In this document: positions 21,786-60,700 of the stretch, piece after piece | How the letters are laid out: the number at the start of each line of letters is the position of its first letter | Position numbering within the stretch: position 1 is the stretch's first letter | Position numbers and translations under genes: made by a program | Notes under the pieces: generated by a model | The model's database searches: none | The model's input: only the letters and a program-made list of their open reading frames with translations | Told to the model about the DNA's origin: nothing | Source: Amoebophrya sp. A120 | Taxonomy: Eukaryota; Protista; Dinoflagellata | Length of the DNA: 64,000 bases | Direction: 5' to 3' | Assembly: GCA_905178155.1 (NCBI GenBank) | Contig: CAJINV010000010.1 | Location: forward strand, 1,222,709 to 1,286,708

Positions 21786-24700
21786 ATGAATAGTGATGAC
21801 GAGTTACTGTCTTCGGATCCTGGCGTATCCTCATCTGTATTATCCGGGGACAACGACAATGGTACCACTACCAAGCAGCAGAATGCAGGCGCATCTTTTC
21901 GGGAACCAGGTAAGAATGATCAAACATTTTCGGACAGTGACGATGAGTTTTGCCAGGCTGATGGGCCTACTCCCGCCAGCTCCGCCGGACGAAAAAACGA
22001 CGAAGAGGACCTGGACGACGGCTTCGACGCGGGGCCGCAGGTTGGTCACTCGAGCAAAATCAAGACACGCGAGGAGAACACCAAAAGAACGACTCAAAGG
22101 ACCACCTCTCTGTCAGACTCAGACAGTGACGAAGAGTTTCTGTGCGAGAAAAATTCATCTATGTTATTGTGGGGTAGCAACGACAACGAGGACGATTCCT
22201 CAGATGTAGTAGGTGCCGACGGCGGTGCGGCTGCTGGAATAGGACAGGAAAGGAGAAACTCTGACTCTGGTGACATAGGCGTGGCCTTGGATAGCGACGA
22301 CGAGTTTGTGCACGGGGATCCTCGTGGATCATCGGTTGAGCACGGGGAAAATCGTGTTATGGATTGTAAAAATGTCTGGGTCTCCTGGAAACTTGTGATG
22401 CTGGGTGGCGTATCATGAGGAGGCCACAAGTGCTGGCTCAGCATGACAAGTCTCTGAGCTTCTATATGATGCCTATTCTGCATGACAAACTGCGTTTTTG
22501 CATGACAGAAAAGCTTAAGATTAAACGCCGAGGCCTCTGGAATGGATGGGCTAAGACAGGGAGTGTATAAAGCCCTCACCGATGAGCAGTATGAGGTGCT
22601 AGCAGAAGTATTCAGCAGATTCCTGCAGGAAGTTGAGGAATATGAGCTGAGACAAAACATGGGGAAAGGGCCAAAACTACTAGAGGAGCGCCTGAATGTG
22701 GTGCAGGTAGAGCTGCTAAAAAAGCAAACAGCAGCAACGACCGCGATAGAAAAAATAAGGACAGTAATACAAGGGACAGCGATTATGGGGGTGCTGATGA
22801 GCGCGGTAGTATATGAGATGGCACGAGTAGCAGACAAAAGCGACGCGCTCACACGATGCGGCTCAGCCTCGAAGCCAGGCGCAAGCTGTCAAGCCACAGC
22901 GCTGCAAGTGCTGGAGACCTGTCACGGGGGAGAAGCACGAGAGAAAGGAGAAGAAGGGAAGAAAGAAGAGAAGGGAAAGAAAGAAGAAAAGACAGCGACA
23001 GTAGTTTTTGGGCTAGATGCATCAAATTACTTCAACAGCATAGGACTCCCCCGAGCGGTGGCAGCCTATAGGGCCGCGAAGCTACACCCGTGCTTTATAA
23101 AACTGATAATAGTAACAGCATGGACAAAAGACCTATGGATTAGAAACGGCGAGCGCTCCGGTCATGTGATAAGACGTCGCGAGCTTATCCAGGGCGCCGT
23201 AGAAACGATGCTCGCGGGGACCCTGATCTTCCTCCCGGGAGTGGAAATTATTGCGGAATTTTTAGAGGAGATTTTTGATGAAAGTGGACGAGTAAACGAG
23301 AGCAGATTGCAGGCAGCAGAGGCGAAAACGAGAACAAGAGGAAAGCGACTATACAAAGGGGGGGATGTCGACACGACGTTCCCGGACTACGACTACAGGA
23401 CAGAAGTGGGCGAAATCTATCACAAAGAAGCCTCGCCGGCGGAAACGGGTTACAGGAGAGGAGAAAAGGCGACAACGGGCAAGGAGAAAGGGGGTAAAGA
23501 CAGGGAGAAGAAAAAAACAGAAACAAGATACTACTCGGGAGTCTTGCGGGGCGTCAGCAATAAAAAGTGGACGCTTTGTGTTCAGTATGTCGATGGCGGC
23601 ACCCTAGTGGTGAAGTTTTACATAGAGGATACAAAACCTATAGTGAGGGCATTAAAAGCAGCAAGCTGGGCATACGAGGAGACTTATGCAACGGAAGGCC
23701 AGTTTTTGGCGCCACAGAAGTGCGAGTTAGCAACATCCATAAGGGACGCGAAACTGGTTAACCTGCTCCGGCAAGCATTCCAGCCTTTCGGAATACTATT
23801 CGAGGAGAAGAGCTTCCTAAAGATTCTGGGCATCAAAATAGTGCCGCAAGACAAAGAAGAGCAGGCGAAAGTCCTGCAGGGGCAGGCGAGGCAAAGTATA
23901 GGGATCGGCCAGCACCTGGCGCGCCAGGTGATGATGCGAAGAAGGGGGCTGAACGGAGAGGAATTGACTTGGGTGGTGCAGGTGTTTTTCGTCTCGGCAA
24001 TGATTTACTATCTTCCAGCAATGCGTCGCTTCTTCGAAATAAAAAAATGGGCAGAATTAATGGGAGAGATGGCGCTGACAATAGCAGAAGCAATGGGGAT
24101 GACAATGGAGGTCGTGGAGGAAATAATGAAAAGAACAGGAACAGAAGCAGAGACGTTTTACAGGGTGATCTTTGGCATGAACATGCTAGGGCTCGCGGAT
24201 CCGTACACGATGGGGCTGAAAACGTTGCGGGCAACAGCGCAGGCCAACTACCTGACGGACCCAAGTATGTTTGCGCCTCTAGCGACGACACCAGTAAAGG
24301 TAGTGGGACAATCGAAAGCGGGTATATCCAAAACAGATGAGCGCCAGATACTGAAAAGAAAAGAAGCAGACATCGCGCTCCTGCAGGCGCTTAGCGACGG
24401 GGCAAAAGTGAGGCTATCGCCTGGGAGCGACTTGCGAGCGTGTGGAATAGTAAAGCAGCGCAGCGCAGTAGGGAAACTGAGGACGGCGAGCCAATATACA
24501 CACCGATCGCACAGAGCCGCCCCCGGCGCCAGGCTCTTTATTTTCGCGCTAATTTTCCTACAGTCGGCGCTCTTGTGGGGGCACTAATTTCTTGTCTAAG
24601 TTTTTGTGTAATTTCTTGTCTAATTTCCTGTCTAAGTTTTTGTTTAAGTTTTTGTCTAATTTCTTGTCTATTTTCCTGTCTATTTTTTTGTCTATTTTCC

Positions 24701-27700
24701 TGTCTATATTCGCGGTCTTTGCCGCCTCTAATTTCTGTCTAAGCAGCGGCCTTGGCCGCTTCGGCTGCTGTCTATTTTTTGTCTAATTTGCCCAGTTGGG
24801 CAATTTGCGTGCGATTTTGCCTATGTCGGCCGTTGCTCTGAAATTTAGGCGCAAACTTAGAAAATTTCGGGACGTGGTCAAGAACGGCTGAAAGGGTTGG
24901 CGGCGCAATTGCTTCGCCACTGCGCCTTTCTGGCGGGTCTTCGGCGATGGGCTCAGGCGTCTGCGTTCTGCAAGTCGCCCGCGCCCCGCCTGTGTCCCCG
25001 GCAAGGGTTGCCCGCCTCGGCCTATTGCCCGGGGCGGGCTTGCTCGCCCAGGCTAGGGCTTGGGCGGTTCAAAAAATAGCGGGAATTTAGGCAGTCGCCC
25101 GCCGGGGCTGGCTCTCCGCGACACCGAGGCGACGCGAGCATTATGGTTGATCGGGAAAGGCAGGGGGGATACGGAAAAAAAGGGAAAGCAGAGAAAAAGC
25201 AAAAAATATGGGTGAAGCATTCGGAAAAGGCGGGCACGACGATAGTAACAATACAAGAGGAAAGCTCGAGAGCCGAGGCACACCTGTGGAAAATAGAAAC
25301 AAAGGGGAGCCACCTGAAATCGGAAGTAAGAGAAGAGGAGAGGAGCTTCGTGGCGTATTGCAGTAATGCAATAAGAACAATCGAGAAGGTGAGGGAGAGA
25401 AGAATAGGCAAACAAGGTAGGACAGAAATAATGCTACTGGACTATGACGAACTAAGGGAAAAGACGAGAGGCCTGCTGCGCAAAGGAAACGGCATAGGGC
25501 TGGAGCTACAAGAAACGATCGAAAAGGCAGAGAGCGCGGATACAGGGCTGACAGTCGAAAAGAGAAGAGGAAACGCAAGGAGGACGGAGGCGAAAAGGGA
25601 TATAGAGAAGGAGATAACGGAACTGATCCCGCTTCGAGTAGCGAATGTGTTGAATCATGATAATGAATGCACGAGCTGGATTCGATTCGATTTTGGGAAA
25701 AAGTGTATAGGGATGGACCCTGTATGGGAGTGGCCGGAAATGTCAAAAATAGAAAGGCAGGCTTATATCCACGCGAAAATATTAGGCGAGAGAAAGAAAG
25801 AAGAGAGAGAAAACGACAACGGAGAAGGTAACAAGGAGAAGGAAAAAGCAGGGGGCGAGGGAATGATGGAAAAAAGGGACAAGAAGAAGGGAAGAGGTGG
25901 AGAAAACGAGAATCGGGCCGCGAACGCGGGAGCGAGTTCAGCCAGCCAGCCGCTGGCAAAAATCGCCCCTAAGATTGCCCTAAGAAAGTTCTAAGTTTGC
26001 GCGCCCCAGTATTGGTAGAAAGATCTCTGAAGGCAATGAAGCTCCTCGATCTTTCTCCTCGTTCTATGATAGTTCCGGTCTTTAGGTTTTGAAATGGATC
26101 GCACAGTGCTGACGAAATTGACGCCCAGTTCTTGGAATTTCTCTCGATCTGTCTCTTATCGCTCTGTTGGAGGGTATCCCGAGGATGTTTTGCAGTTTGA
26201 AGATGTTTATCTTGGTTATCGATTTCCAAATCATTCACTTTTACTCACAGCGACCGGCATATTTTACGGATTTTACTTGCTTATGTTGTTTGTTAGAAGT
26301 CCAGCGCGCATCAGTTTGTTGTCATAGTTTGCATCTCCCCTCAACGTATCTGGTTTTTGGAATTACCTACTCACCCCTTCGACCGCACTACCAGTATCAT
26401 GGAAGACCGTGTGCAAGGTGTTGGCCCCGGTGCACCGCCGGGCGAAATTGTGGCACCGGCGGAAGTTCAGGATCTCTCGGCACTGGAAGCCAAGATGACG
26501 ACGACGACGGATGTTTTGGCCGGTTTTCTGATCCGAACCGGGAAAGTTCGCTTACTTCGCGACATGATCCTGCTGCCCTCGGCGTCCCGCATCAACATGG
26601 GACGGTATGGGAAATTTATGTTGCGGGTCTTTCTCAGTGAAGCGGTTGGGACGGAGAAGGCAGTCTTATCCGAATTGGAAAGCCGGTCTGATGTGGCGAT
26701 CGGGCATGTTTACGAGAGGATCTTCACGCGTTTGAAGTTGGTCCTGCAGACGTGTCAGCGCAACTACATAACCACCTGGCTGCAGATGGTAGCAGGGCGG
26801 CGGCGTGGGCTTGTGAGCCACGTGCAGTTCGATGGGACACCCATCACCTTGCTCCCGAAAGGTGAATTCGTATCCGCCGACTCACTAGGAGTTTCGCAGT
26901 GTATTATCTCACCGCGGGAAGGGAGTGGCATTTTTTATTTGGTTTTGTTCTTTGTGTGTCGTAGATTTTCTAGTTTGCCAATGTTCATCCCAGCGCCCTC
27001 TTGTATATCTTATTCGCATGTCAAAACAGGTACTTTCGCGAGCCACGTCAGCAGCACCACCGAGATCGGCGTGGGTGGGGTTGAGCAGAATCGATGTTGG
27101 AACTCGCCGGATTGTGTGCATATGGTCGACGGGAAGCGCGACGTTTATGCAGAGAAAACACATGCTGCCACGCCACTAGTACTAGCGCATGAGATGCATT
27201 GGGAGCGTTATTTGAGGCGCCGGCGATTGTGCATGGCCTGCCTGTGGTGTGTCCGTGTTTTCTTTGCATACCGCGCAGGAGTACATGGAAATTCACAAGC
27301 GGACGACGAACGTGCGGTCCGAAGCCAAGAAGAAAACCCCTGGGGGCAAAGTCGGGCTCACCATGAGCCACTATGTGTCCGATGGTGGAGCGCTCGGGGT
27401 GGTGCGGAAGTATTGCGGCCTCCGGCACATGTCCTGCGGATTGGATGGTGGCCCAGCCACGGCTTTGGAGGCCCTGCATGACCTCCATGTCATGGATTCG
27501 TGTGTGTTGCATGGAACCCACGGGGCCGGCGAAGATGGTGCGCAGCGGGTAGATTTATTGGCTTCCGAGGCGCATTTAGATGACATCAAGCGGATTGCCA
27601 ATGGCCTGCGAAAGTCCTTCGGCGGTCTGCGGGAGGAGTTGTGCGATTGGGTCGACAGGAACTATGCCGGGGGGAAAAAATTGCAAGACTCGACCGACTA

Positions 27701-30700
27701 CGACGACTTGATGGATTGGATCAACCCCGGAAGCGACAAGCTCGTGGAAGAAATCAAAGAGCAGGAGCTTCGCTTCGTAGGGGGGAAATTGTTGGGAACC
27801 ATCCCACGCACGGAGAAGGGCGTGCTGGTCTTCATCGCCTCGCTGTTGTGCAGGATCTCGATCCGCGCATTCCAGTTCGGGCGGTTTGGCAATGGATTGG
27901 ACCCGGCCCGACGTGTGGTTCTGGCGGATGTCTGTGGGTTACTGCATTTTGCCGAATATGCGAAGCGTGTCGCGAAGCGGAAGTTCTTCCTCCAGCAGGC
28001 TTTTACAACCACGAAGCTGCGCTACAAACAGTTTCCCGTCGCGGCCTGGAGTTTGGTCACCTTCTTGCCCCCCATTGAGCGCTGCGAAAAGTCTCTGTTG
28101 AAGGGCGAGACGGTGGATGATGTTGTGCAGATTCGCAACCAGTTCCGGGCCGATGTTGCCGTGGTCCGGCGGCAAAATCTGCGAAAACTCTGGGCCTTTT
28201 CCCCCAGTATGACTGAAGCTGATCGGGAGACGTACATCAGTGCCAGCCTAGACGCTCTGTCGACCGCTGCTGCTTCTCAGGAGCTTTTAGCCTTTCGCCG
28301 CCTGGATTTGCCGCCCTACAGCATTGTTCTCCAGAAGCCCCGAACCCTCGACGCGATCTTGGACCGCATCAGCAACACCTCTGAGGATTGTCTCGACGCG
28401 GGATTCTGCGGGAAGTTAAAGAAGTTGCAGCACTACTCCCCTGGCAGCATCAACGACAGCAAGCAGTCGCTGTGTGACATTGTGCAAATTCTTCTCACTT
28501 TACCACAGACGATCATCATTCGGGAGCGCGCGCACAAAAGCGGACACCGGCACACAAAGTCGGCGAAGAGTTTCAGCAAGGTGAACGAGATACAGTTCGT
28601 CGAGCAGTATGTTGAGCAAAATCATCTGCTTGAAACCTGTCCCGGGAAAGCTCTAGCCGCAATGGGGAAGTCTTTGGACACTTTGCGAAAGGAGTCGGGC
28701 GCGAACATGGTGCGGAAGTCGGGAATGTTTTTGAAGGAGAAAGCCGGTGGCCAGGGGCACAGCTACGAAGACATGCGGGACACGGTGGCGAAGGAAACAA
28801 ACAAGACGTTTCAGCAACTGGCCAAGGCTGGCCAAGTGGAGTACCTGCAGCCGATGGTAGAAGAGCAGCAAAAGAAGTTACTGGAGAAAGCCGAGACCCG
28901 GCATGAGCAGCAGCTCGCGAAGTCGTACAAATTTCAGGACAAGGTGGCCCGGCGCCGATGCTTTGTCACGGGAACAAACTCGCACGACCTCGATGGCCTT
29001 ATCACGGAGAAAACTTTCTTGGATGAGTGGGGGAAGCTGCGCGTGGATTCTTCCAAGGCCGCGCTCCACGCGTGTGCCCAGGATTTCGACGCGAAGTTCG
29101 CGGAGCTTTTGGATAAGACGATGCTGCGGCTCCCAAGCCGTTCTCCGTATCTGGAGCATTGGGATGATTTGCAGGGAAATGTTGCGGAGATCGTGCGGAG
29201 CCACAAGCGGTGTCGGGACAAATTGGGCGCGGTCATCGTTGTGAAGTCGGAGGAACTGCTCGAGGATGATGATTTGGAGCTGGCGTGCTTCGAAGTAAGC
29301 TTCATCAGCCTGCAGCCGTACATATTGGGAATGGAGTACCTCCGCCCAGTCGACATCTCTATGGTCCCGGGTGGCAAACCTGGTCGGAAGACCTTCTTCG
29401 AGCGCACTGGGATTTTTCGCTACATTACCAAGCTGCTAGGCGATGTCTTTATCGTCGCGCGCGAGAACGTCACCTCCCACGGGGGAAAGTTCCTCGAGGT
29501 TCCGGGGAAGGCGACCTACTTCTTCATCGACAGGTGCGACACGTTTGAAAAGCTGCTTCCGGGCTCCTTGTTGGAGAGGGGGAAAAAGCAGAAGGCGGGC
29601 GAGGTTGAGGAGGACGAGGGGGAAGGCCGCTCCGCCGCTCTCAACAACTACAAAAAGCGGAAGGCTGGGAAGGTGATTAGCGTCGCAGAACTGCGGAAGA
29701 CAATGGACGGCGAGCGGCTGGCCAAGTTGGAGACCTGTTTCACGGACCTGCAGAAGGTTCGCGAAGAGGCGGCACAGAAATCAGCAGCAACTGCCGACCC
29801 CTTGCACAATACTGATATTAATCTAACAATTTCCGGCGGGGCCTGGGTCATGGCGAATCACAACAAAGCGAGTGACAAGCTCGAGATGAAGGTCAAGGAC
29901 AAACGCCTCTTTGCGGTCTGTGATCGGCTGAAGCTGAAGCGGGTGCGGGATTTTCGTCATGCTATGTGGGGAGACGATGAGAACCGGTCAGAAGAATCAG
30001 CTCGGAGTGTTAGAAACCTCTACCGCTTCTTCTTCCAGTCTGGTGCCCAACTTCCGGGCACAGCTGACACCTGCCCCGATCATACTAAAATCTGTCGCGC
30101 ACAAATCCAAAATGATCACAAGCCGGCGATTGCAAAACAAAGCAACTATCTCAAGGATCGCAAACAGTTCTTCTGCCACAGACGCGACGTCTTCTATAGT
30201 CATTTGATCGATCTGATCGACAACTGCGTCTACCGTCTCCCGGTCGACTCGGACGAGCAAGACGCGCTCGCGGTCGACACCATGAACATACAAGACGATG
30301 ATCTGTAAACCGTGCAAACCATTGGTCTGAACTTGCAAGAAGTCATAGCGAAATAACTCAAGCGCAAAGAGTGTAGCTCGTGTCGAGTCTCGAGCCCGAT
30401 CCTTTTCTGTTCTCAGCGTGTCGCGGTGCCTGATGGTCTTGATTGATGCAAAAAATTGACGCTGAAGATGATGTTGTCCACCCAGATGAACACAAATCAA
30501 AATCTCTTCTGGTTCTGTGCGCCTGAGCTTGTAACGTCGGGCCCCGACTTGTTAATTCCTAAACACACATAATTTTTTGCGACAGGGACTCTCATTCTGT
30601 TCTAGACGCTCTTGCAGCATCTGACAAAGCAGTCTTTGCAAGTTATACCGACCAACGGTTTACCACTGCATATCCTGGACTGCCCCGCGCTTCCTCGATA

Positions 30701-33700
30701 CCCATAAAGGATGTCTTCTGATCTCGAGAACAAAAACCCGGCCTCCGCTGCCACTTCTGTGGTTGGAAACGCGGAAACCAAGGCAGCTGCTGCCGGTGCT
30801 GCTTCGGCGAAGCAGGCTTCCCCCAAGGTCAAGGCGAAGAAGAAATCCCAGAACAAGGCGGCGAAGAAATCTTCCAAGAAGAAGACTTCCCCCTCGACCC
30901 TTGTTGTTCAGGTACTACGCTGTTTTTCGTAGGTATTCTACTTGCCTTGGATTGCTAATTTGTTAACTAATTTCGCGGATAACCCCTCGGCTAAATCGAT
31001 GCCTAATTTTGCGACTAATTGCTGGATAATTTTTTGAGGGGGACCTATTCCGTATTTGTGAAGGCAGTTTAGACACAGATTAGACGGATATTTAGACACG
31101 AAATTAGATGGCCCTCGCGTCATGTAGTTGGGCCTTTCGCTCCCCTTCCCCGAATTGGGGCGCTCGCGTTTCTTGCCTCCCTGGAGCGGGAACTTTTCGC
31201 CAGCCCCCGGCTGGCGAAAATCCCCACTGGAAATACAATTTGTGTTGAATTTCCAATGGGGATTTTCACCAGCCGGGGAGTTTTTCGATTGGAAATTCGA
31301 AAAGTTTTGAACTTTTAACTTTTGTCGAGCGGGAACTGGGACTTTGTACTTCCAAAGTTCCAGTTCCCGCTCGACAAAAGTGGGGAATGATGTGAAAGGA
31401 TTTCTCTTTCAAAAATGTTGAAAGACGAGAAATCCTTTCGCATCTTTCTCCACTTTTGTCGAGCGGGAACTGGAACTTTGGAATTCCAAAGTTCCAGTTC
31501 CCGCTCGACAAAAGTGTGCTTTCGCCAGCTCCCGGCTGGCGAAAATCCCCATTGGAAATTCAACACAGTTTGTATTTCCACTGGGGATTTTCGCCAGCCG
31601 GGGGCTGGCGAAAGCATTTTCACCAGCCCCCGGCTGGTGAAAATCCCCATTGGAAATTCAAAACGTTTTGAATTTCCAATGGGGATCTTCGCCACTCGGG
31701 GAGTTTTTCGATTGGAAATTCGACAAGTTTTGAACTTCCAACTTTTGTCGAGCGGGAACTGGAACTTTGGATTTCCAAAGTTCCAGTTCCCGCTCGACAA
31801 AAGTGGGGAATGATGTGAAAGGATTTCTCTTTCAAAAATGTTGAAAGACGAGAAATCCTTTCACATCTTTCTCCACTTTTGTCGAGCGGGAACTGGAACT
31901 TTGGAATTCCAAAGTTCCAGTTCCCGCTCGACAAAAGTGGAGAAAGATTTGAAGTTTTGGACTTCCAGTCCTTTCTTTCGCCAGCCCTCGGCTGGCGAAA
32001 GCACTTTCGCCGAGAAGTCGTTGGTGAAAGTCCCGATTGGAAATTCAAAAAGCTTTGAGGTTCCAGTCGGGACTTTCGCCAAAGACTCGTTTGCGAAAGA
32101 GGAAAACACAGGGAAAAGCCGCATACCATCCGCGGAGCAACGACTCTCTCTTGTTGCGGGGCGGCTTTTTCAACATGTTTTGTGGGAGGGTTTTGCTTTT
32201 CTAGTCTCCCTCGAGCGGGAACTGGAACTTTCGAGTTGCGAAAACTCGAAAGTTCCAGTTCCCGCTCCGGTGGGAGGAAGAAAACTGGTTGCGAAAGGAA
32301 CGACGTGTGCAGATTTTGTCACATGCAGCATCTGAATTTCCACAATTAAAGAGCTTGTTTATTCATGAAAAATCTTCTCTCAGGCGCCTACCCTGACCAA
32401 GAAACAGAAGGCGGCGGCCAAACGCAAGCAGCGGCAGGCGGCCAAGAGCATCCTCGAGCAGCAGACTTCGGACGCCCTGCCGGAGAAACTCGTGGGCCAC
32501 GCCTTCAAGATGGCGCGTAAGTTGAACACCAACAAGCGTTGGAAATTCAAAAAGAGCGTGATCAAGTCCGCCTGCTGGGAGGGAAACAGAACCACCGCGG
32601 AGTACATCGCTACGGAATACATTCCCGCGTTGCGGGCTGAGGCCAAAAAGAAGAAATTGGACAAGGGGGCGGACACGAAGTATTGGATTTTGAAGCCTGA
32701 GTGGGAAAAGGCCATCCTGGCCAAGTGGACGGAGGAGCGGGAGGAGCAGGCACAGCAGGTTCGTGGACGGGTCCGCCCGTCCATCCTCCGCATCTTCAAC
32801 GACTCCCTGTACCCGACCGCGCATCTGAAGCATAAAGCGGCGCTTGCGTGGCTCCACCGCCACGCGCAGCAGGTGAAGAAATCCTTCCCCCGGTGGTTGG
32901 AAATGACCGTGAACGCGGCGGCGTCGAGCTCCACCTCCGCCCCGCAGCAGACCGTGAGAATGTACGAGGCCACTACCGATCCGCTGGACAACACGTACGG
33001 CTTCGGGCGTACTGATTTCGAGCGTGCGCTCGACCTGGCTTCGACCGGAACGGGGCAGAACTCCGGGTCTACGCCTGTCACTGCTTCGAAGAACTCCTTG
33101 TTCGCTGCGAGTGAAAGCGTGAATCTGAAATCGCCCGGGAATGAACAGACCAAACTCGATTCCACGGTCAAAACCACCCCGCCGCCGAAGCCCTTCGCGA
33201 CGGCCGGCTCCGCTGGTCCGTTGACCAGCAGCTCTGCCCCGTCCGTGTCCAACACTGTTTCGCCCGTGAACGACGACCCGCTGCTGAACAACCCGACGAA
33301 GCGTGATGGAAAGCGGCCGTCGGATGCGGAGGATGAGCTGTTGCATCGTGCGAAAAGATCCCGGAGTGCCCTGCTCCAGGCGCGGCGCACGGGCCGTGGC
33401 GCGAGGGCCCGGGCCGCAGAGGAGGACTCTGCCGCGGATGAGAAGTACGGGCTGAACGCCACCGAGATCGGCGACGTAAACTCCGGGATTTTGCAGATCA
33501 TCTGCCAGAAGGACGCGGAGCTGGGCCGTCGCGACGACCGTGGCCTCGAGGCCCTGGCCGCCTATGTGGAGGCTTCGCAAGGTAAATGCTTACTCCTCTT
33601 TCCAAACCACAAGCTGCTTCATGCTTTTTGCAAACCTAGAAGGCCTTTTTTTTGTTGTCAAACATAGACAAACGGAGAGCAGCGGCAAGTGTCCATCTCA

Positions 33701-48700: not shown

Positions 48701-51700
48701 ACGTAGGAAAACGATTGCGGTAGTTGATTTGGTTGGAGTAGCATGAAGTAAAGTAGGCTATAGTCCGGCAGTTTTGTTTTCCAGTTCCTCTTCGTACCAA
48801 AGTGCTCAGTAGTCAGTCACCATCAACGCGAAATGTCATCTAGACGGGGAAGGCGGGCGCGGGTGGCAGATGAACCAACCCGGACTGGTCGCTACAACTT
48901 CGAAGGGGTCCCGTGTGAATTATTCGCCAACTTTATCGCGGACGCGACCGGCCGCCGCGACGTGGTCTGCAACAACCGCGACAGCACAGACGAGACCGTC
49001 GCCTTGAAAATCAAAGGCGGCACCGGTGGCAGCAACCTCATCGCCAGATGGTGGAGCTCGTCGACTAAAGTAATTTTCCAAAACGATGAGCACGCGCGAA
49101 TGTCGGACGTTTTCCAGCACTTCATTGCTACGGGTTCGGCCGGGCAGATGAAGAACCAGGCCACGCCAGCAACATGGAAGGACGGCGTGTACGAATCGAC
49201 GGTAGGGGCCCTGTCCAGCCTGGACATGCAGGCGCCGCCGGCGATCGGGTATGGAGACCAGGAACAGAAAGCGATCCAGTATGAAACCGCCAACACAGGC
49301 AGCCAGTTGGTAGGGGGAGGGCAGTTGGGACAAAATCCCCACGATGCTGCTGCTTGGCTCTGCGACTACATGCAGCAGGCCACAGGACCGGGCTCGCAAG
49401 CACCTCTCACAGCTGCCGGCGGTCCAGAGCTATCCCAAGCCCAAGCCTACAACCCCCAACCCAGACAACAGCAGGCACCAATCGAACAGAACTACAACTA
49501 CCACCAGCACACCACTGGAAACTGCCCGTCCCGGCAAAACCACTACACTGCTCCGCGGGAGCTGGAAAAGGGCCAACAGCAGGCGGGGCATTCGGGGGAA
49601 GCCCGCCAGCAGCACACGGCGAACTAACACAAACACGCAGATGGGCATCGGCGTAAAAGGTGGCGGGGTAGTTACAGTTGGGGGAGCGGGTATGAAAGAG
49701 CAGATGAGCGAGCGGGGCACTAAGGGGAGTGAGCCGAAGATCCTGCTGAGCGAGCTGGGCGGCGGGACCGGCGTCGGGACTGTGGCGGACAGGCAGGCGA
49801 CCACCCACCAACGCCTCGCGGAAAGCAGCGCAATACTGGCGAACCAAGACCACTACCAGAACGAGGAAGCGATGCGTCTCCCTGGGATGAGAGAGAGTAT
49901 GCTGGCGCTCCAGAAACTGCAGGAGGAAATGGAAAAAATTCAAAAGGCACAGAGAGAGCAGATCACGCAGAGCCAGAGCGCCCCTCTGGGCGGCACAGTG
50001 ACCGGGGGCGATGGCACACAAGAAAAAACCAACCACGAGGTAGACCACGCGCACAACCAGGAGCGGGGAAACAACAAGCGACCCAAGGAACCCGTGGGAA
50101 CGCCGGAAAAACCCGCAAAAAAGAAGAAACAGGGCGTCGCGGACTGGTCTTCCGAAGAAGAGGAGGAGTTGTCGCCGTTGTTCACACCGTCGTGAAGCGG
50201 GAGCCGAATCAGAGGTCGAGGAAGGAGGGAACGATGATGAAAGCCCAATCAGAGCACACTACAGATACTACTACTTCGCGAAAAAAATGTTTTTTCGCAG
50301 TTCGGTCAGTTTTTGAAAAAGTAAGAACGCGGACACTAAGCAAACCACTCTCCACAGCAGAACACTGAAAGAAAGCGAAAAAGTCAGACAGAACGGCGCT
50401 CGGCCAGCCCTGAAGCAAGTCAGTCTAGGCATGTCCTTACGAGGTCGCCACGCGACCCGGAAAAATATTAAAAGATCAATACTCAAGGGCCCCGCGGGGC
50501 ACTTACCCACGCGAAGGCTTGCGCGATTGTCAATAAAGCAGACTGATAGGCATGGTGGATGTGATAGGTAGGAGCTAATGCGTAGTGACTAAGTAGGGGA
50601 GGCCGAACAGCGAAAGCGAAGCTGTAGTAAATGTAAGCTGTACTCTGCAGCGGGAAGCGGAGCGAGGCGGAGCAGAGGACGGCGACCGGAAGCCGCAGCG
50701 CCTTTTCCGAAGCAGGCAACAGAGAACCGCCTCCCCCGGCAAACGCGCGGAACCGGAAAGAACTGTGAGTGAGCAAACTTTATCGAGAGAGCTGGCGGCG
50801 AACACCCCCACCAACTGACGAAGAGTGAGGGGAGTGATGGAGGCGCGCAGGCAGCTGGAGAGGCTGCGCAAAGGCTTCGGAATGGACAACCCGGGGCAGG
50901 CAGACATCGAATTTCCGGGGGAGCCAGCAAAAAGGAAGGCCGTCACTCCCCGGGAGTACACCCCTGCGAGGAGCCAGCCGGTAGAAGGAGCAAAACCAGG
51001 CACGAAAGAGTACGCGAAAATTGTGCGCGACCGCTGCAGAGAACCTCCAGAAGCGCCTGGAAGCGATGACGCCCAACACGAGGCAGGACGAGGTCGACAA
51101 AAGGAAAAAGCGGAAGCGGGGCGCCCACGTGAAATCGCGGGAAAAGTTTCTCAAGATGTCGAAAGAGGGGCGGGCGGCAAATTTCGAAGAAAAACTGAAA
51201 AAAGGTGACGGCAGAGTGCTCACCACGGAGCAGCGCACCGAAAAGGCGAAGCAGAAGAGCGAGCGAGAGGTGAAGCGCCAGCAGTACCGGACGCGCGAGC
51301 TGAGAGAGCTGGCGCCAAACTAACGGCGAGGGGGGGGTGGTAGTCGGGAGGTGTGGCTAACGAATCGAGACAAAATCGACAGTGAGACAGCGGCGCGCTG
51401 CTTGGACTCCAGGTAAAGAACAGACGAAAAAACAGAAAGAGCACTGGTGGCGTGGGTGAAAGTCAGTGGTTGATGGAAGAAAAAAAGACGCTTTAAGGTG
51501 TTCGAAAAGTCACGGGCGAGGGCGCAGCCTTAGCGCTTCTATTCTTTCAGAAACAAGCAGCAGCAGCAGCGGCGTTTTTTAGCGTAGTTAGAGCCTTCCC
51601 ATTTTGCATGCAGAGATAACAAAGAAGCGTAGGGCGCGCGTGGCCGGAGCTTTTCACGAAGGACAGTAAGGATAGGCATAATGTGTGGGCTTTTGTATAA

Positions 51701-54700
51701 TTAGTTCTCATGTTGGCTTTTGTATGCCGTGTTCTGGCGAGAAGGCACTACACAGAAGGCATGACGCACGAATACAGCGAGTCCCATGAGGCTGACGTAG
51801 GGAGCAATAGAGCTAGTGTCGGTGAGCCTGCCAGCAAAAGGAATAAGCAAGTGAGGTAGCAGACCAAAAATGCACGACGAAAACCACAACCACATGGCTT
51901 GCGGTTAAACCGCCCCACACCCGACCAGACGCCGAAGATGCTCGGGCTCGGTCCAGAGGACATGGAGGACGACGACGAGCCCGAGTTCGTGAGCCACGTC
52001 TACTGGAACATGAATGGTTCGGGCGAAGCGAACACGGAGGCGCTAGCCAAGCTAGTAGCGGACTTACGGGCAACAGAGGCGGCGGCGGTCGAAATAAAAA
52101 AGAGCGAGCTGGACCTTGAGCAGGCAGCTTTTGAGGGCTTGAGTGAGCGGAAAGGTTTGCACGTTGTCGCCGCGACAAATTTGGTCGGCATCTCCACCAG
52201 CCTCAAGTGCGGCGGCGGCATGATAGCAGATTGCAACAAAGTGAGAGAGCGGCCGGCCATGGTGATCAGCAAGCTCATACTTGCACGAGACCCGTGCGGC
52301 GCTTTTTTCACCGAGGAGATAACCGACAAAGAAGACGCCACTCTCTGGGCGGTCGGGGCGGTGCGAGACAGACGGTTGACGTTGACTCTATACCGAAGGG
52401 AGACACGAGTGCCAATCGATACGCCGAGCAAGTCCTTCATCGCCAAGCAGGTCGGCGACCTGATTAAGGAAATCACTACCGCCATGAACATGTCTGACTT
52501 GTGGATAGTGTCGGGCGACCTCAACGCATACCACGAGGTCGACGCGGAGGACAGGGCAAAGCTTGAGGACCGCCAGCCAGCTTGTGCGTTAGTGCGCGCT
52601 GAAGTCCTTGAGCCTGTTTTCAATTTCCTTAACAGTCGCACACGCTTTCAGAACACGCAGGGCCCAACGTGCTACCGTTCAAAAACGTCGCCGACGGTTA
52701 TCGATTTCACAGCGGTAGGACCCAGAGAGGGCATTTTGTTCGCCGCAGAGATACAGCGGGTGCAGGTCGTTCGGGGACAGCAGAAAGAGTGCAAAGCCAT
52801 TCCGGAAAACAGCCCGCCCGAATTACCAGAGGGCGACCACATTGCACTCCACACCGCCATTAGCTGGTATAGGCCGCAGGCACCACAGCCGGCACAGAGC
52901 GGAGACGCGAGGCAGCCAGGCAGCGGCGAAAGGGCGAAGCCGCTCGCTTTCAACGCGCGGCATTCGGAGCTTATTCCGACTGAAGGTGAGAGAGAGCGGG
53001 CGAAGATCCTGAAAGGACAGAAGGAATTTGCGGAGCGCCTCCCATTTTCGGGAGTAATATCCTGGCCCAGGGGTACAAAAACGACAGAGGTTCTGGAGCC
53101 ACTATTCGAGGGAGCACAGATGCCCGACATCGAGCAGGTCGGCCTGGAAGGCATCCAGAGCTGGGCGCAGGAGGTACTCCTGGACTCCGGTGCGTGCAGC
53201 TACGTACCGACCGAACCGACAGAGGACATGAGGCAGCTGTTCGAGCGACAGACACCCGGCCAGCGAGGCGGGAGAACAGAAGGAGCGAACGGCGCGGACA
53301 AAAAGAAAGAAAAGGAGAGAGAGCATCGGTCAATGTTCGCGGGGCCGGTAGATGGGTCTACGCTAAATAACGTCTATCAGCACGCGAGGCAGGCGAGAGA
53401 GCAGGTTCTAGGAGTCCGCCGCGGCGCCCCGGCGGAAGAAATCAAGAAGATCAACGCCGGCACGGCCACGGCCCCCAGAGAGGTCGTCGGGGTTGAGGAG
53501 TGCACGAAAGAAATTTCCTTGGCTCACGTTTTCAAAAGTGGGCGAATCCGGTACGCCGAAGGAAAGCGCCACACGTTCAGCCCGGAGGAAATGCAGCGCG
53601 CCGTCACGCAGTTGACCGAGGCAGCGAAAGGTCTACCGCCTCTGCGAATCCCCGCAGCCGAATTGAGGAGACACATCACGAAGATGAACAAAGAAGCCTC
53701 CGGCGCCGACGGGGTCCGCTTGCGGGCCTATGCTGCTATGACGGGCCAGCAGATTAGCCAACTCGCAGCCGGTTACGGCGCCCTCTTGCAGGGAATTGGC
53801 CTCGCGGATTGGATCCCGGGACAGAAGGACGCAACTTCGCCGCCGGCGCTGAAGGTGTTGCCGGTCGAGATCCTCCGGAAAGCCTCACAACTTGGCGGGG
53901 ACATCTCGAAGCTCCGGACGGTAATTCGCGGGACACCGGTCTACCGGATTATGTTGAGCTTCCTTACGCACCGCATGGCCCGCATTGCGGACCTTGGGGA
54001 CGCTTTTACCCCTTCCGGGGCCGCCGGAAAGCCGGCTGCTTCCTGCATGGCAACCGTTTTAGAAATCCTGAAGGTCTGCTACGCGGAAGACCTGCAGAAC
54101 GGCTGCGAAAACAAGGAGCGAGCGGCGGAACTGAGTGAGCAGGAAAAAACGAACGCAGCGAACTGGCTAACGATCTTGATAGGAATAGACGCCAGCAATT
54201 TCTACAATTGCATCAGCATACCAAGCATGGTGCGGAGTTTTCGCTGGGCGCGGTTGCACCCCACCTACATCAAGCTGGCAATGCTTTCAAACTGGCGGAA
54301 AACCCTCTTCCTGAGGAACGGGAGTTGCTTCGCAGAGCTCAGCGACCATCGAGACCTCATCCAAGGCTCGGTGGAAGCTATGCTTTGTGGCGTCCTGCTC
54401 TTTATGAGAGGAGTCACCGCGGTGGCGCGGTTCGTGGAGGAGTGCTTCGACGCGGCCGGGCGAATCGATGAGAAGCGCATCGACAGCGCAGGGGCGAAGC
54501 TCCGCCGAACGCTGCGCGAAGATTTTGCGGGGGGAGATGACACCGGCGTCACCTTCCCGGACTACAGGCCGGCGGAGGAGGTCCATGAGCTCTTCCGCGA
54601 CGAGGAGGGCGATGGCGGTGCAGAGACGGGAAACAGGACGACGAGGACCCGGAAGACCCGGAGCAAAGAGCACGAGAGGACGAGAGTCAGCCAGAGACTG

Positions 54701-57700
54701 CCGATGAGTGAGCGGGAAGAGAAGGCGCCAAGGAAGGCAGCCGTCGTCCAATTTGTGGATGGTGGTACCCTCTCCATCAAATTCCACAAAGACGACGCCG
54801 AAAAACTGCGGAAGCTGCTGAAAATAGTGGCCACAGCGTGCGAAACGATGCACGCGCCCGAAGGGCAGCACCTCGCGCCAAAAAAGGCCGAGATGCTCCT
54901 TTCCGCTTCGGCGATGGACCAGCAGGCGCTATATCTCGCAGCCTTCCGCCCCTTCGGAATTGTCTTCAACTTGAAGGAGTGCACCAAGATCCTGGGCATC
55001 ACGATCCGGCTCGGCGACATACGGGACCAGGTTGATGCAATTCGCAAGCAGGTCAACAATTCAGTCTCGTTCGCGCAGCACCTCCGCTATCGAGTCATGC
55101 GAAGCAAGGGCAATTTCGTGATGACTGGCGCGGATCATCGGTGGGTGGTCATCTGCTTCTACATGTCGCCAATCATCTACATTCTTCCGGTGCTCCGCCT
55201 GATTTGCGCCCAAAGCGACTGGTCCGAGTTACTTATCGAGATGGCGACTTCAATCGCGAAGGTTATCGGTTTCGACCGAGAGGTCTGGGAGAGGATGACC
55301 ACGATGCACAACGTCACGCCGGAACTTTTCCACCGACTGACTTTCAGTGAGAACATCCTGGGGATTGTAGACCCGTACGTGCTCGGGATCAAGCTCCTCC
55401 GAGGCGTAGCGCAGAGCAACATCCTTACCGACATTGATGGCTTCGTGACTTGGGCTACGTTCCCGATCCGCTTCCACGGCACCGGGCTTGCAGGAATCGG
55501 CGCGGCCGACCGCAAAGCAGTACAGGTAAAGACGACGGCGGACTTGGCATTGGTTGAGGCGTTGAGCGAGGGAGCGGAAATCAGGTTGCCGGCGAAGTCC
55601 GACCTCCGACTGTGCGGCTTCATCCCGGACAGGAGCAGCAAGCCCCCGCCGCCCGAAAAGGTCCCGCGGGCGTGCCACAATGAGAGCGCTTTCGTGGTGG
55701 CATCGGCGGACGGCATGGGCGTCCGACTCCTGCAAACAGACACGACAGGGCGGGTTTCGGTACTTCGGCAGGTACGAACAAAACGCGAGCACCTGCTCAC
55801 AGAGGAGAGAGCGGAAGAAAGACAGTTCGTCGCGTATCTGAGTGGATTTCTATCCCTCAGTTAGCAGACGGAACAAGAGGAGCCAGGAGTGCACTACACT
55901 CACCTACGTACAGGCTATGCGACTGCTGGCGACTCCGGGGAAAGACGCGCGGGCCGCTGCGCCGGGGCGAAGGAATGGCCGTCCATTTCGCCGAGCAAGT
56001 CGAGCAGATGCACTTGAGGGGCCACAGAGTTGAGCGAGCGAACACAAGAACGGCGGAGCAGGTCGCCGAGGCAAGCAGAGAGATGAGCACAGTGACTGCG
56101 ACCAAAATCATAGGGCTCAGCATTGTAAACGCAACCGGGCACGACCACGAGTACACAGATTGGCCTGTCTACGATTTCGGTCGGTGCGAAGGCTTTCGGT
56201 TTCCCCCCGCTGCGGGACTGGAAAAAGCGGCGCAGCCTCGCAGCGCGGCGTGAGTACATCAGAGACTCGCTGCAGTTCCAAGACCTCCAAAACGGCGAAA
56301 GCACAGAAGACGAGCATCCGGATAATGATCCGGCGGAGGTTGAGAGAGCGGCCGCGCGATCGCCGGCGCCGAAAGGAAGGGCGAAAGCACAGGCAAAGGC
56401 GAGGGAGCAGCCCCCCCAGGAGAGAGCGGCAAAGCCAAAGGCGAAGGCGAAGCAACCAGGCCCGCAACCGAAACAGCAACTGGCGAAACGAGCGCAGGAT
56501 GCGGACCCGGGGCCCCCGAGGCGGCAGGCGGCCGGCGGAAGGGCGGCGCAGGCGAAACAGAACCCGGCCCCAGCAAGGAAAGCAGTGCCGGCGAGGAAGA
56601 AGTAGATAGGGTAGCTCTAGGACGCAGACGGCTAGTTGAAGAAAAAAAAAAAACAGAAGACCTACTACACAAAAAGCAAAAAGGTAACAGGTAGGACAGT
56701 CAGTACGAAGACCGGGAAGTTTAGTTTTTTGCGCAAAAAGAAAAATATAAAAAACAGCACAAGGTGCGTGCGGAGGACACAAGGTGACCACGCGGGCGGC
56801 GTGTTCACCCAGGCGGGCGGCGAAGAGCCAGTGATGGCTGAGAGAAAAAGAAAGAAACGCGGCTACTCCGTAGCCATATGGTCTCTAGTTCCTTTGCACT
56901 CCGGGCGCGAGGCCCGCCAGGGTTCTCGTCGCTCGTGTATTGTCTCCCACGCCGCGACAGGGCCCGCGGAGCGAAGCCCTACGGGACACGGCCCGGACAG
57001 AAAAAGTAGCAAAAGCCAAAAAGAACAAACCGCCGGGGGCCTTATGCCACCCACCTTCGGCACGCCAGAAGGCCACAAGCCCAGCAAATCCAAAAGAACC
57101 GGCAGTAGTAGCAGTGCACTACCTAGATACTAACTAGCTTAGACGGGTCTTAGCCTTAGCGCAAAGAAAGAGGGGCAAGTCCAAGAGGCTTTTGCATGGG
57201 GTCCACTGGTCACCGTTTCGCGCGAGCCATTCGGTGGACGACTGACCCCGCCCCATTTAAATAGCCGCTATGCGGGAGATTTGTAAAAACTGGACTTCGT
57301 CCGTCTCCGGGTGGCGTGCCCGGGGTTCAGTCTAAATAAATTTGCCCGGGAAAATACCACGCAGCGGAGCAATCAGGCCTACTCGTAGGCCAGTCGGGGT
57401 CTACCCTTTCTCCACGTCGTCAAATGTGGTTATTGGGTTTTGTTGGCGTATGTCAGGGGATCCCTGTCTTTGGCATTTCACGACTCTTCCCATGGGTTCA
57501 CTTCGATGATTGCTGCCGGGGACGTTCTTAGGCAGTCAGCTGGATGACTGTGACCTGGCTCGTACTGTGAACGCAGCTGGATGACTGTGACCTGGCTCGT
57601 CTTCGATGGGCGGGCGGATGGCTGTGACCTGTCTCGCCCATCAAGATCCCTAATCCGTAGCTCCTAGACGTTGCCTGGCCCGCGAATGACTCCACGGCAG

Positions 57701-60700
57701 CCGGATGTCCGTGACCTGGTTATAAAGGGCTTCGTCGATCGATTGTGCCACTAGGGCCTTGTGTTCTGGCTACTCCGGATCGCAATCGATGGAGGGCGGG
57801 ACCTGCACCGGCGACAGGCGCTATCCAACCAACCAACCAAGCCTGGCAATCTTCCAGACCCAGACATATTTGCATTTGATACGAGTTTACACGACGCAAT
57901 TGAGGCGGTTCCGTTTGACGAGCCGTTTGCGCGCATTTTGGTCCTATGCACTGCAAAAGTGTCTGGGTCTGGATCTGGAAACTTGTGATGCTGTTTGGCG
58001 AATCATGTGGACGCCTTCATTGACAGCCAAGCATGACAAGTTTTGGAGTTCTTGCTATAGTGTTGCCTATCTGCATGAGAAACTGCGTTTGTGGTGCATG
58101 ACAGAGAAGTGTGGCTTTTGTGTGGCGCGCATGACAGACTTGAGACCATGCTAGCTGTGCATGACAAATCCTGCATTCTTCCAGACCCAGACATGTTTGC
58201 ATTTGATAGGTCCGCACCGATCAGGAGTTGAGACAGACTTTGGTTGTGAACAAACACGTGTTGATTGACGGCTGGCGGTTGGGCGGACCGGTGAAGGTTA
58301 CGATTAGGAGGAACAGGAACTACAAATGTGCCCGCTGGCGTCCAAAGCAGAGCGATCGTGCAGCAAGACGGAACTTCAACACGAACAAGGAAGTTTGCCA
58401 TGCAAGGCATAAAGAGCACAAACTAGCTCGCATCTTCTCGCCTCCCCTGCTCCGTGTGGAAGTCGGCGGCGAAAGGGCGTGGTTCAAAAATCTGTGCTTC
58501 TCGGTCGTGGAGGATGAGAGTGTACTGAGTGAAACCATCAGAGAATCCGATGGAGCTGCTGCGGAGCAAAGTTGTAGGACGGCCCGACTACGCGAGAAAA
58601 CCAAATCGCCCAAGCTGTTCTACAAGTCTCCGATGGTGGAAATCTGTTGCGGGCATCCGGGGTTGGATCCAGACCAGTTTGGGCGGGTGACAGAGCAGGT
58701 CGCAAAGGGACATCAACAAGTGCAAAATATATCAAATGCAAATATGTCTGGGTCTGGAAGATTGCAAGGTTTGTCATGCACATTTTGCATGACCCGTGAT
58801 GTCTGTGATGTATGCCCTCGCATCACAATGTTTTTGCGGGCATCTTGATACCTATCCCGCATGAGAAATGCCCTCTCCGCGGAGCTAAAACTGGACGCCT
58901 CTTGCTGCTCATGCAATACAGATTTTTTTAGATTCAAAATAGCATCACAAGTTGCATTCTTCCAGACCCAAACATTTTTGCAATCAATAAAATACACATG
59001 CCGACAAATCTCCACCTTCTCCCCCTTTCAAGCGAGACGAGCTCGTCGGCCCGTTTTTTACGCAGTGCAGGTTTCAGCGGGAAAGGGATGTTAATGACAT
59101 GGCGAACAAAACGTCGAAAAGACGCCTTCGGAGTAAGGCAGGTGTAGTAACAGTTGGCACTTCTCCTGCTTCAGGCTCAGCAGATGATGAAGAAGTTAAA
59201 CCACCTAAATCAGAAATACGGTGCTGTACCGCCACCGGGGCTGCTGGAGTGAAAAATAACGGCGAAGCTGAACAAGCCGCACGACCGGATGCGAACAAGT
59301 TCAGAAGAAAGGGACCAACTGAACAAGAAGGTGACGAAGTACCAGTAACACAGGACGACGCCGCCAGCGACACCGAGCTTCAATTTTCCACCATGTTGCG
59401 CATTCCGGATAGTGAGGAGGAAGCCAGTTGCTTTTCCTCGGGTGTTATCCACAGAAAAAAACCCATCCACATCGAATTTGTCATGCAAAACACGTATCAA
59501 GTCATGTGTTTGTCATGCAAAAAATGGTTGGGGATGGGTTTTTTTCTGTGGATAGGGGCCGTCAGTGACAGCACGACTTCTTGTTCGCCCCCGTCGGGGA
59601 GCGGGAGTGACAGCGCTGGCAAGCGCGAATCGTCCGGGCGCTCTGGTTCCAATCTCGGGATGAGAATGAAGAACGAGAATTCTTGCCAAGTCACAGCCGC
59701 GAATCCTAAGCAGGATTTTTGCCTGCCCAACAAGAAGAATCCGAGTAAGAAAGGCAGAAAAACTTGTTCTCTCCGTGAAAGGTACAAAAACCGTGTCCGA
59801 AAAGCAGCCATGACCGGTAATTTTCCAGGATTGCTGATGAAACCGAAAACGGAGAGGTCTGCCAGTCTGGAAAGGGCGCAAAACAAGCGGGACGCAGTGG
59901 AGTTTTTTGCGGAGGATTATAATAAGCACGAGGGTACTAATGCTTGTCTTCGCCCAACTTCTGCTATCCGAGAAGTGAGAGGTGATGGTATGATCGGGAC
60001 GCCAGCGGCGCGTCGTCCATTTCCTTGTTCCCCACAAAGCGCTGCAAATCATCTTTCCCCTTGGTGGGACCCAGCGGAGGCGCGAATCTACCTTGGAGAA
60101 ACAGCCCACCTACATCCGTTGACGGAAATCTTGAAAATCCGGGACCGGTTGGTCAAACTGCGGGAAAAATGGAATCAACTTGTGTGTGATTCTTTTTGGT
60201 GGAAAACGAAGGATCGGGCTGATAGCGAAAAGTTAGAGAGGAAGCAGAAAATGAAAAACAAGAACCCCACCTTGTTCTCATCTAGGTGTGGAACCACGAG
60301 GCACACGAACTTTATGATGCGGAAGAAAAGACGAGAAAAGCCAATATTGTGCCTGACCCAACAACAACCAGGAGTCAGAGCCCGTCTGAAGAGGAACAAG
60401 TTGCAGAACACCTACCAGCGTTTGTCTTCGGTCTTCTTTGAAGAAAGTGTCGGAGCTCCTCGTAGCACTACTTCGTTCGCGGCGGTGGACTACTACAATT
60501 TAGTGTTAGAGGAAGCTGACCGGATTGCAACGAAAGTAGCACTGCTGGATCTGAAGCTGCGGTCCGTGGATGTGGTTGGGTTTTATAGGAGAGAAGTATT
60601 GGCTTTGGCGAAAAACCAAAATGAAACCGCGAAGAATGATGTTGATCAGGATCTTGAACAACTACAAGCAGATGGTACAACTTGCAACGCTGCTCTTCTC

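Follow-up and report, generated by a model that had tools for sequence, protein, structure and literature searches.

The DNA analyzed here (the window) is a stretch of 64,000 nucleotides of the Amoebophrya sp. A120 genome (contig CAJINV010000010.1, forward strand, positions 1,222,709 to 1,286,708). The window is gene-dense and contains short elements with TAT...ATA ends, about 42 in all, of which 38 are uninterrupted and four interrupted. These elements start with TAT + 7 nt + AAA and bear short direct repeats, which is how the introners of strain A120 have been described (PMC7789003; here and below, statements about published work refer to the parts of each paper drawn on). Two of the introners each enclose a long interspersed nuclear element (LINE) of the apurinic/apyrimidinic endonuclease (APE) type. 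A first-pass annotation had proposed that both LINEs landed at one motif of the family A introners, and that they may represent a retrotransposon that targets introners. We found that the nesting is real and well defined, that the LINEs represent a new, divergent lineage, and that a preference for the motif is suggestive. The features that carry this result are as follows; L001 is a related LINE from a metagenome collection.

22358-39349, forward strand: A2-type introner with terminal inverted repeats (TIR), host of LINE copy 1; empty size about 255 bp, 5-nt direct repeat CGTGT
22499-22515, forward strand: left copy of a 17-bp target-site duplication (TSD), beginning with T followed by GCATGACA (repeat scan)
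22516-24506, forward strand: LINE copy 1, 5'-truncated, reverse transcriptase (RT) region reading YVDGG at 23583; 70% amino acid identity to L001 and 38-39% to copy 2; RVT_1 E=0.15
24507-25121, unstranded: nested 615-bp TIR element with a 6-bp TSD (CACCGA) and a 12-bp tandem array
25122-25937, forward strand: LINE copy 1 continued, C-terminal region of open reading frame (ORF) 2, by homology
25938-37407, unstranded: nested 11.5-kb TIR element with ends TCAG..CTGA; TSD GCGAGT, or the 8-bp AGCGAGTT if the ends are CAG..CTG
37408-39235, forward strand: 3' part of LINE copy 1 with a 35-bp tandem repeat and a (TAC)n tail; about 10 copies by depth at 39051
39236-39252, forward strand: right copy of the 17-bp TSD (repeat scan)
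48389-57881, forward strand: A-type TIR introner, host of LINE copy 2; empty size about 265 bp, direct repeat CGAGT
48610-57837, forward strand: LINE copy 2, 9.2 kb, without TSD, with a (CCAA)n tail, splitting the A introner at GCATG^(A)CAA
48608-48668, reverse strand: two introner-type motifs at the 5' junction of copy 2, each GCAT(G/T)ACA then AAAA (motif scan)
51860-55864, forward strand: ORF2 of copy 2, with an APE-type endonuclease (about 51990-52870) and an RT (FVDGG at 54749); Exo_endo_phos_2 E=0.0013, atlas match of the relative L001

The 16-mer GCATGACAGAAAAGCT occurs in the window only at 22500 and 39237. With the T that precedes it, it forms a perfect 17-bp TSD (22499-22515 = 39236-39252), the right copy of which follows the (TAC)n tail. 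The TSD reported in the first-pass annotation is therefore real, with its length corrected to 17 bp. The two flanks of copy 1, taken together, align end to end with an intact A2 introner at 4992-5246. That copy 1 is a single 16.7-kb LINE was ruled out, as it consists of a 5'-truncated LINE of about 4.6 kb in three pieces and about 12.1 kb of nested TIR elements. Homology to L001 breaks off at 24518 and picks up at 25122, so that the LINE is continuous across the 615-bp insert. The 11.5-kb element contains an ORF of 1030 amino acids (27216-30308) and other ORFs, a palindrome array (31195-32270) and a nested miniature inverted-repeat transposable element (MITE, 33712-34951). All three TIR elements stacked in copy 1 bear 6-bp TSDs.

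The TIR elements at 24507-25121 and 33712-34951 are non-autonomous; both have TC..GA ends and a 6-bp TSD, and the latter shares its TCAG..CTGA ends with the 11.5-kb element that encloses it. The TCAG..CTGA ends are unlike the TAT..ATA ends of the introners. The ORF at 27216-30308 gave a weak lead to hAT transposases (atlas 0.79), and searches with it found no Pfam match and no homologue; the parts of PMC7789003 drawn on report no putative transposase in A120. The palindrome array inside the 11.5-kb element is a dense set of nested perfect palindromes with 89-nt arms and a 423-bp repeat.

In the second host, the left flank ends with ATATGCATG at 48609, the insert ends with (CCAA)4, and the sequence to its right, CAAGCCTGGCAATCTTCCAG, matches the family A siblings. 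Copy 2 thus breaks an A introner at GCATG^(A)CAA, as had been claimed, with the A of the motif at this site supplied from the siblings and not seen in the sequence. The (CCAA)4 tail merges into the CAA of the flank. No TSD of copy 2 was found by scan or by eye, including further inside the 5' end, and a hidden TSD deeper in that end was rejected on the same grounds. The 5' junction is crossed, without any difference and at single-copy depth, by a contig of 4170 nt from run X1, and the junction is therefore not an assembly artefact. Depth along the body of copy 2, a rough measure summed over contigs, was 1x in the 5' half, about 2x in the RT region and 10-17x or more at the 3' end. The final bin of the contig comparison over 52600-57855, at 88x, was not used, because high-copy introner contigs may inflate it.

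The 5' end of copy 2 also contains TGTAATGCAAAA at 48608, the first two bases of which belong to the host, and TGTCATGCAAAA at 48657, 49 nt apart, both of which had been pointed out in the first-pass annotation. Within the 9.2-kb body of copy 2, an exact GCATGACA occurs only here, at 48657-48664. The segment 48608-48668 has no close match elsewhere in the window or in L001, and the possibility that it is a copy of a nearby introner was rejected for that reason. Its two motifs may derive from captured introner DNA or may belong to the 5' end of the LINE.

Both LINEs lie in introns and in the sense orientation to the host gene, as had been stated. After in-silico excision of each LINE-bearing introner together with its 5-nt direct repeat, the host frame is open (492 and 211 amino acids were tested), and the same excision rule opens the frame across most of the uninterrupted introners. 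RNA run X5 yielded 125 reads, which were set aside because nearly all were only 90-95% alike and lay at introner ends, with 0 on exons. An internal GCAT(G/C/T)ACA motif, spaced at 30-45 nt, is common to introner families with unlike terminal repeats (A, A2, B, C and others); it is likely to be a binding site for a common mobilizing or splicing factor. A TIR element of about 626 bp at 43213-43840, with a 5-nt direct repeat, is placed directly in exon-like sequence, and its excision reopens the frame. At about 42880 there is a paralogous repeat unit without such an interruption, and a further copy of the element was seen in run X1; this element is a candidate long introner.

We then considered what kind of element the two insertions are. 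With domain-sized queries, the Pfam profile Exo_endo_phos_2 matched at E=0.0013 and RVT_1 at E=0.04-0.15, below the curated Pfam cut-off. With the full ORF2s of the window, nothing was found in Pfam at E<=0.1, in sequence searches of PDB or in word-based homologue searches, and two AlphaFold models had pLDDT values of 36 and 33, too low to use. In the atlas, L001 fell with RVT_1 and Exo_endo_phos clusters (0.93, recognition 2950). A profile search retrieved 21 relatives, 20 of which were looked up and 19 of which were named Amoebophrya (strains AT5.2, A120 and A25); among those looked up there was no sequence match of the window proteins to any LINE from outside Amoebophrya. One relative, P0007, exceeds the Pfam cut-off for Exo_endo_phos. 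The motifs WN, GD(L/F)N, ID and DH, which we take to be those of the endonuclease, align among the relatives. An APE-type endonuclease of the endonuclease/exonuclease/phosphatase (EEP) fold family thus lies N-terminal to an RT in one ORF, and the elements end in simple-repeat tails, (TAC)n and (CCAA)4, with no terminal repeats, either long terminal repeats (LTR) or TIR. Their TSDs are variable (17 bp in copy 1, none in copy 2). Copy 1 is truncated to the RT. Copy number rises toward the 3' end of copy 2 (1x, 2x and 10-17x) and is about 10x at the 3' untranslated region (UTR) of copy 1, which fits 5'-truncated LINE families. The APE-type LINE identity given in the first-pass annotation is borne out by the Exo_endo_phos_2 and RVT_1 matches, the atlas and P0007.

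Copies 1 and 2 share 38-39% amino acid identity and have unlike tails and unrelated 3' UTRs; a common 3' UTR was rejected, the best local score being 26. They are separate families, here families 1 and 2, of one divergent APE+RT lineage, all named relatives of which are from Amoebophrya. In a tree of the RT region (8 sequences from these relatives only, fragments left out), the window copies and L001 group at 100/99 support. The lineage is also present in strains AT5.2 and A25, whose published introns differ from the A120 type. At the position of the catalytic YxDD, both window copies read (F/Y)VDGG (23583 and 54749), L001 and six database relatives read VDD, and the relative P0011 reads YVDGG. 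VDGG could be either a tolerated variant or an independent inactivation. In ORF2 of copy 2 the homology goes on in another frame past the stop, indicating a broken C-terminus. Because of this break and of VDGG in both RTs, neither copy is clearly active.

The scan for further copies found at least one locus, L001, in the metagenome collection and none in viral contigs or prokaryote genomes. L001 belongs to family 1 (70% amino acid identity to copy 1) and has an uninterrupted APE+RT ORF (1-4113). Both of its LINE ends are cut off and it therefore gives no target site; the sequence past its 3' break is not introner-like. The same contig also bears a family A introner at 10138-10392.

The positions of the two insertions relative to the motif are close and differ. 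The 3' junction of copy 1 lies at -1/0 of a motif and that of copy 2 at +5/+6, 5-7 nt apart and at different copies of the motif, so the offset is not fixed and a nick at one set position is not seen across the two families. The hosts also differ in subfamily (A2 for copy 1, A for copy 2). The claim that both LINEs sit at the family A motif therefore stands as to nesting and adjacency but has to be divided over two subfamilies and different motif copies, and the fixed offset from the motif was not upheld.

We asked how often such adjacency would arise by chance, using the catalogue of 38 uninterrupted introners, whose bounds are approximate. Introners make up 9.1 of the 12.5 kb (73%) of non-coding DNA in the window. 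Near-motifs occur at 19/kb in introners, 0.9/kb in other non-coding DNA and 0.5/kb in exons, with 4-6 per family A introner in the six copies examined. Under survival alone, the probability that both LINEs lie in introners is 0.53, and the probability that both junctions fall within -1 to +8 of a motif with at most one mismatch is 0.006. The motif was picked after both sites had been seen, and the fair post hoc version asks for any shared 9-mer (at most one mismatch) touching both junctions; its probability is 0.024 when all non-coding DNA is considered and 0.049 when only family A is. The sharing of the motif is thus modestly beyond what survival alone predicts.

Elements other than LINEs are also nested in introners, and two of them served as a comparison:

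12055-12937, forward strand: 883-bp Helitron-like element in a B-type introner, with a 3' hairpin and CTGG, without TIR or TSD; a non-LINE control
14655-15472, forward strand: second Helitron-like copy, 79% identical, in a C-type introner, with a 3' hairpin and CTGG, without TIR or TSD

The Helitron-like element is non-autonomous and both of its copies in the window lie inside introners. Beyond the window, supplement sd07 of PMC12130899 lists A120 TIR introner families with LINE peptide matches (fam16, fam6 and fam2) and with LTR domains (fam3). On our reading, these rows reflect genome-wide nesting of both retro-classes in introners, which the section of that paper drawn on does not say.

Further flanks were sought by comparing contigs of run X1 with 52600-57855, and six of 23 loose ends, chosen by the tool, were examined. 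All of these extra flanks belong to family 2 and none to family 1. Four lie on the 5' side, of which two are introner-like with a motif within 14 nt and two (57241 and 56950) are not introner-like. The flank at 52707, which belongs to a long family 2 copy, is introner-like and ends with GCATTACA plus 4 nt before the junction, matching the position of the family A motif. The loose end at 57824 has a family A context with an exact motif 13 nt ahead of a CCAA run. For two motif-bearing flanks out of four, P is 0.05-0.10 if window rates are used and 0.009 if a genome-wide rate is taken from published A120 figures, which is an estimate. By the published figures, introners are about 29% of non-coding DNA in A120. 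At both window sites and at both motif-bearing loose ends, the motif and the LINE share a strand. On the 3' side there were two rows, each merging two contigs, with at least 255 loose letters and an agreement of 0.62 and 0.67. The agreement expected is 0.63 for random or unrelated sequences, 0.61-0.68 for off-register siblings and 0.80 for in-register siblings; the 3' flank pairs accordingly fit unrelated flanks or off-register siblings and not in-register siblings. On the 5' side, the introner-like flank breaks off after 73 nt. Run X3 gave three small pieces and no junctions. For family 2, the tally from these six rows and the window is one copy in an introner, two of four further 5'-side flanks introner-like and the 3' pairs out of register, a mixed picture that speaks against strict targeting and slightly in favor of a preference.

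Taken together, these data lead us to prefer, tentatively, a reading in which two APE-type LINE families lie inside TIR introners because introners are a safe haven and because their endonucleases have a loose preference for the motif. The safe-haven part is likely, given the 73% introner share, the two Helitron-like copies in introners, the three TIR elements in copy 1 and the sd07 rows. The loose preference draws on weak statistics, the post hoc values of 0.024-0.049 and two of four flanks with the motif, and its looseness on the differing offsets and on two of four flanks lacking the motif. Several points weigh against this reading. Only two insertion sites are fully resolved, the motif at copy 2 matches at 7 of 8 bases with one of them supplied from siblings, and one of the two Helitron-like junctions lies 1 nt from a motif variant, which shows that such adjacency arises easily. 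The loose end at 57824 is only a candidate LINE insertion, the bounds in the introner catalogue are approximate, and the six of 23 loose ends are a biased sample, with a bias that may run either way. Insertion may instead have been blind to both introners and motif, with exonic hits purged and the adjacency a by-product of motif density; survival bias had been named as a real alternative in the first-pass annotation and we keep it as a rival, although we consider it rather unlikely. It would explain the probability of 0.53, the density of near-motifs in introners (19/kb vs 0.5-0.9/kb elsewhere), the nesting of other transposable element (TE) classes in the same introners, long 3' flanks that look unrelated and two 5'-side flanks that are not introner-like. 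The lineage is, moreover, common to AT5.2 and A25 and is therefore likely older than these introners. Blind insertion does not readily predict the 9-mer shared by both junctions (p = 0.024-0.049), nor a motif on the strand of the LINE at both window sites and both motif-bearing loose ends.

A stronger form of targeting, similar to that of Tx1L or Tx1-Mar, in which the endonuclease of each family reads the motif at its own fixed offset and the LINE is a hyperparasite of introners, appears unlikely to us. Both window sites are at the motif, the flank of the sister long family 2 copy would fit a nick at +5 with a 7-bp TSD, copy 2 itself bears the motif twice at its 5' end, and APE-type LINEs that target other TEs are known (PMC4494074). 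Nevertheless, the flanks at 57241 and 56950 do not resemble introners. The 3' flank pairs run for at least 255 nt at an agreement of only 0.62 and 0.67, while the introner-like flank on the 5' side already breaks off after 73 nt. Recognition of a strain-specific motif would also have to be common to two families only 38% identical, or to have arisen in them by convergence. The evidence from the flanks would be softened if some of the contigs are non-autonomous derivatives or diverged subfamilies and not flanks. Of the original proposal, the LINE identity, the nesting, the orientation and the adjacency to the motif hold, with the adjacency modestly beyond the survival-only expectation and a further copy, at 52707, with an introner-like flank; the differing offsets, the 38-39% identity, the two of four flanks that are not introner-like, the 3' flank pairs out of register, the nesting of non-LINE elements and the presence of the lineage in AT5.2 and A25 keep it short of dedicated targeting. 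It is very improbable that the insertions are artefacts, either of mis-assembly of a LINE into collapsed introner repeats or of ORFs that are not those of a retrotransposon. The window ORFs have no Pfam match above the curated cut-off, no PDB match and no word-based homologue, and no contig among the rows listed was shown to span the copy 1 junctions; against this stand the perfect 17-bp TSD, the X1 contig across the 5' junction of copy 2, the intact relative L001, the atlas matches to RVT_1 and Exo_endo_phos (0.93) and the passing of the Exo_endo_phos cut-off by P0007.

Under the preferred reading of a safe haven with a loose motif preference, each LINE likely arrived by ordinary target-primed reverse transcription. 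Going by established LINE biology, the bottom strand would have been nicked at or in the motif, reverse transcription would have been primed on the LINE tail (in copy 2 the CCAA tail into the CAA of the flank), and 5' truncation would have been followed by joining, with a 17-bp stagger in copy 1 and bluntly in copy 2. With the direct repeat and the two inverted repeats left intact, the enlarged introners, of 9.5 kb and 17 kb, would still be spliced out, which is the likely reason why the insertions persisted; exonic hits would have been selected against. A loose endonuclease preference for the repeated GCAT(G/T)ACA likely raises the rate of hits, a step for which the statistics are weak. The anatomy of the elements, their junctions, the intact introner ends and direct repeats, the host frame that is open after removal and the multi-copy 3' ends are all observed directly.

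Read cautiously, these insertions mean that introners seed intron growth, as an element of 255 bp has become a 17-kb, four-layer stack of transposons that keeps both inverted repeats and the direct repeat. The host of copy 1 makes it possible to test directly whether the pairing of TIRs is enough to define the unexplained non-canonical splice sites. A more far-reaching idea, which we think doubtful, is that an Amoebophrya LINE lineage retuned its endonuclease to a subterminal motif of a recent introner superfamily and uses its members as hyperparasitic landing pads that would be spliced out even when they grow from 0.25 to 17 kb. If targeting were true, a LINE endonuclease would have adapted quickly to a young, strain-specific repeat, and introners would be added to the known safe-haven targets. 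A lineage with an endonuclease retuned in this way would be without a known precedent among retrotransposons in targeting introners, and the published 'retro-homologous TIR introners' would be explained as nested insertions. Our literature search found no title or abstract opening that reports a LINE targeting introners, with most subscription journals outside the search.

The closest known systems are Tx1L of Xenopus, which targets Tx1D, and the crocodilian elements Tx1-Mar and Tx1-9_AMi, which target Mariner-N4_AMi and Harbinger elements (PMC4494074, PMC6719617). As with Tx1L and Tx1-Mar, an APE-type non-LTR element lies inside a non-autonomous TIR DNA transposon. Unlike those elements, which have a family-wide preference for one element and in some cases a defined position, the window LINEs lie in introners that are predicted to be spliced, in two subfamilies and at differing offsets. 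TSDs and blunt and truncated junctions have all been described for non-LTR elements (PMC4494074). Because the window proteins match no LINE from outside Amoebophrya, membership in the Tx1 clade is unproven, and on present comparisons the lineage would behave like a generic APE LINE.

The host introners share the inverted-repeat start, the direct repeats, the size and the non-canonical ends of the A120 introners of Farhat et al. (2021; PMC7789003), which are about 250 bp long with inverted repeats of TAT + 7 nt + AAA, direct repeats of 3-5 nt and non-canonical ends. That paper records LTR and non-LTR retro-elements in the genome; in the parts drawn on, it does not describe retro-elements nested in introners or a target preference. 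It gives 99.98% GT-AG introns for AT5, a figure that may reflect the gene predictor and that we do not take as proof that AT5 is without introners. In PMC9860276, secondary TE insertion into introns is mentioned, in the part drawn on, only as a filter. Gozashti et al. (2025; PMC12130899) report for A120 'introners attributed to non-LTR/LTR retrotransposons' and a TIR-flanked retro-homologous family 38. Their short TIR families with LINE or LTR matches (fam16, fam6, fam2 and fam3), with row coordinates of up to 7-16 kb, resemble the window cases, and we read rows of 7-16 kb as what nested insertions would produce. LINE or LTR matches in introner families can therefore be secondary insertions and not introner origins. 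Whereas that paper, in the parts drawn on, treats such cases as introner types or as products of unknown mechanisms, the TSD, the tail and the split-host alignment in the window show secondary insertion into a pre-existing introner.

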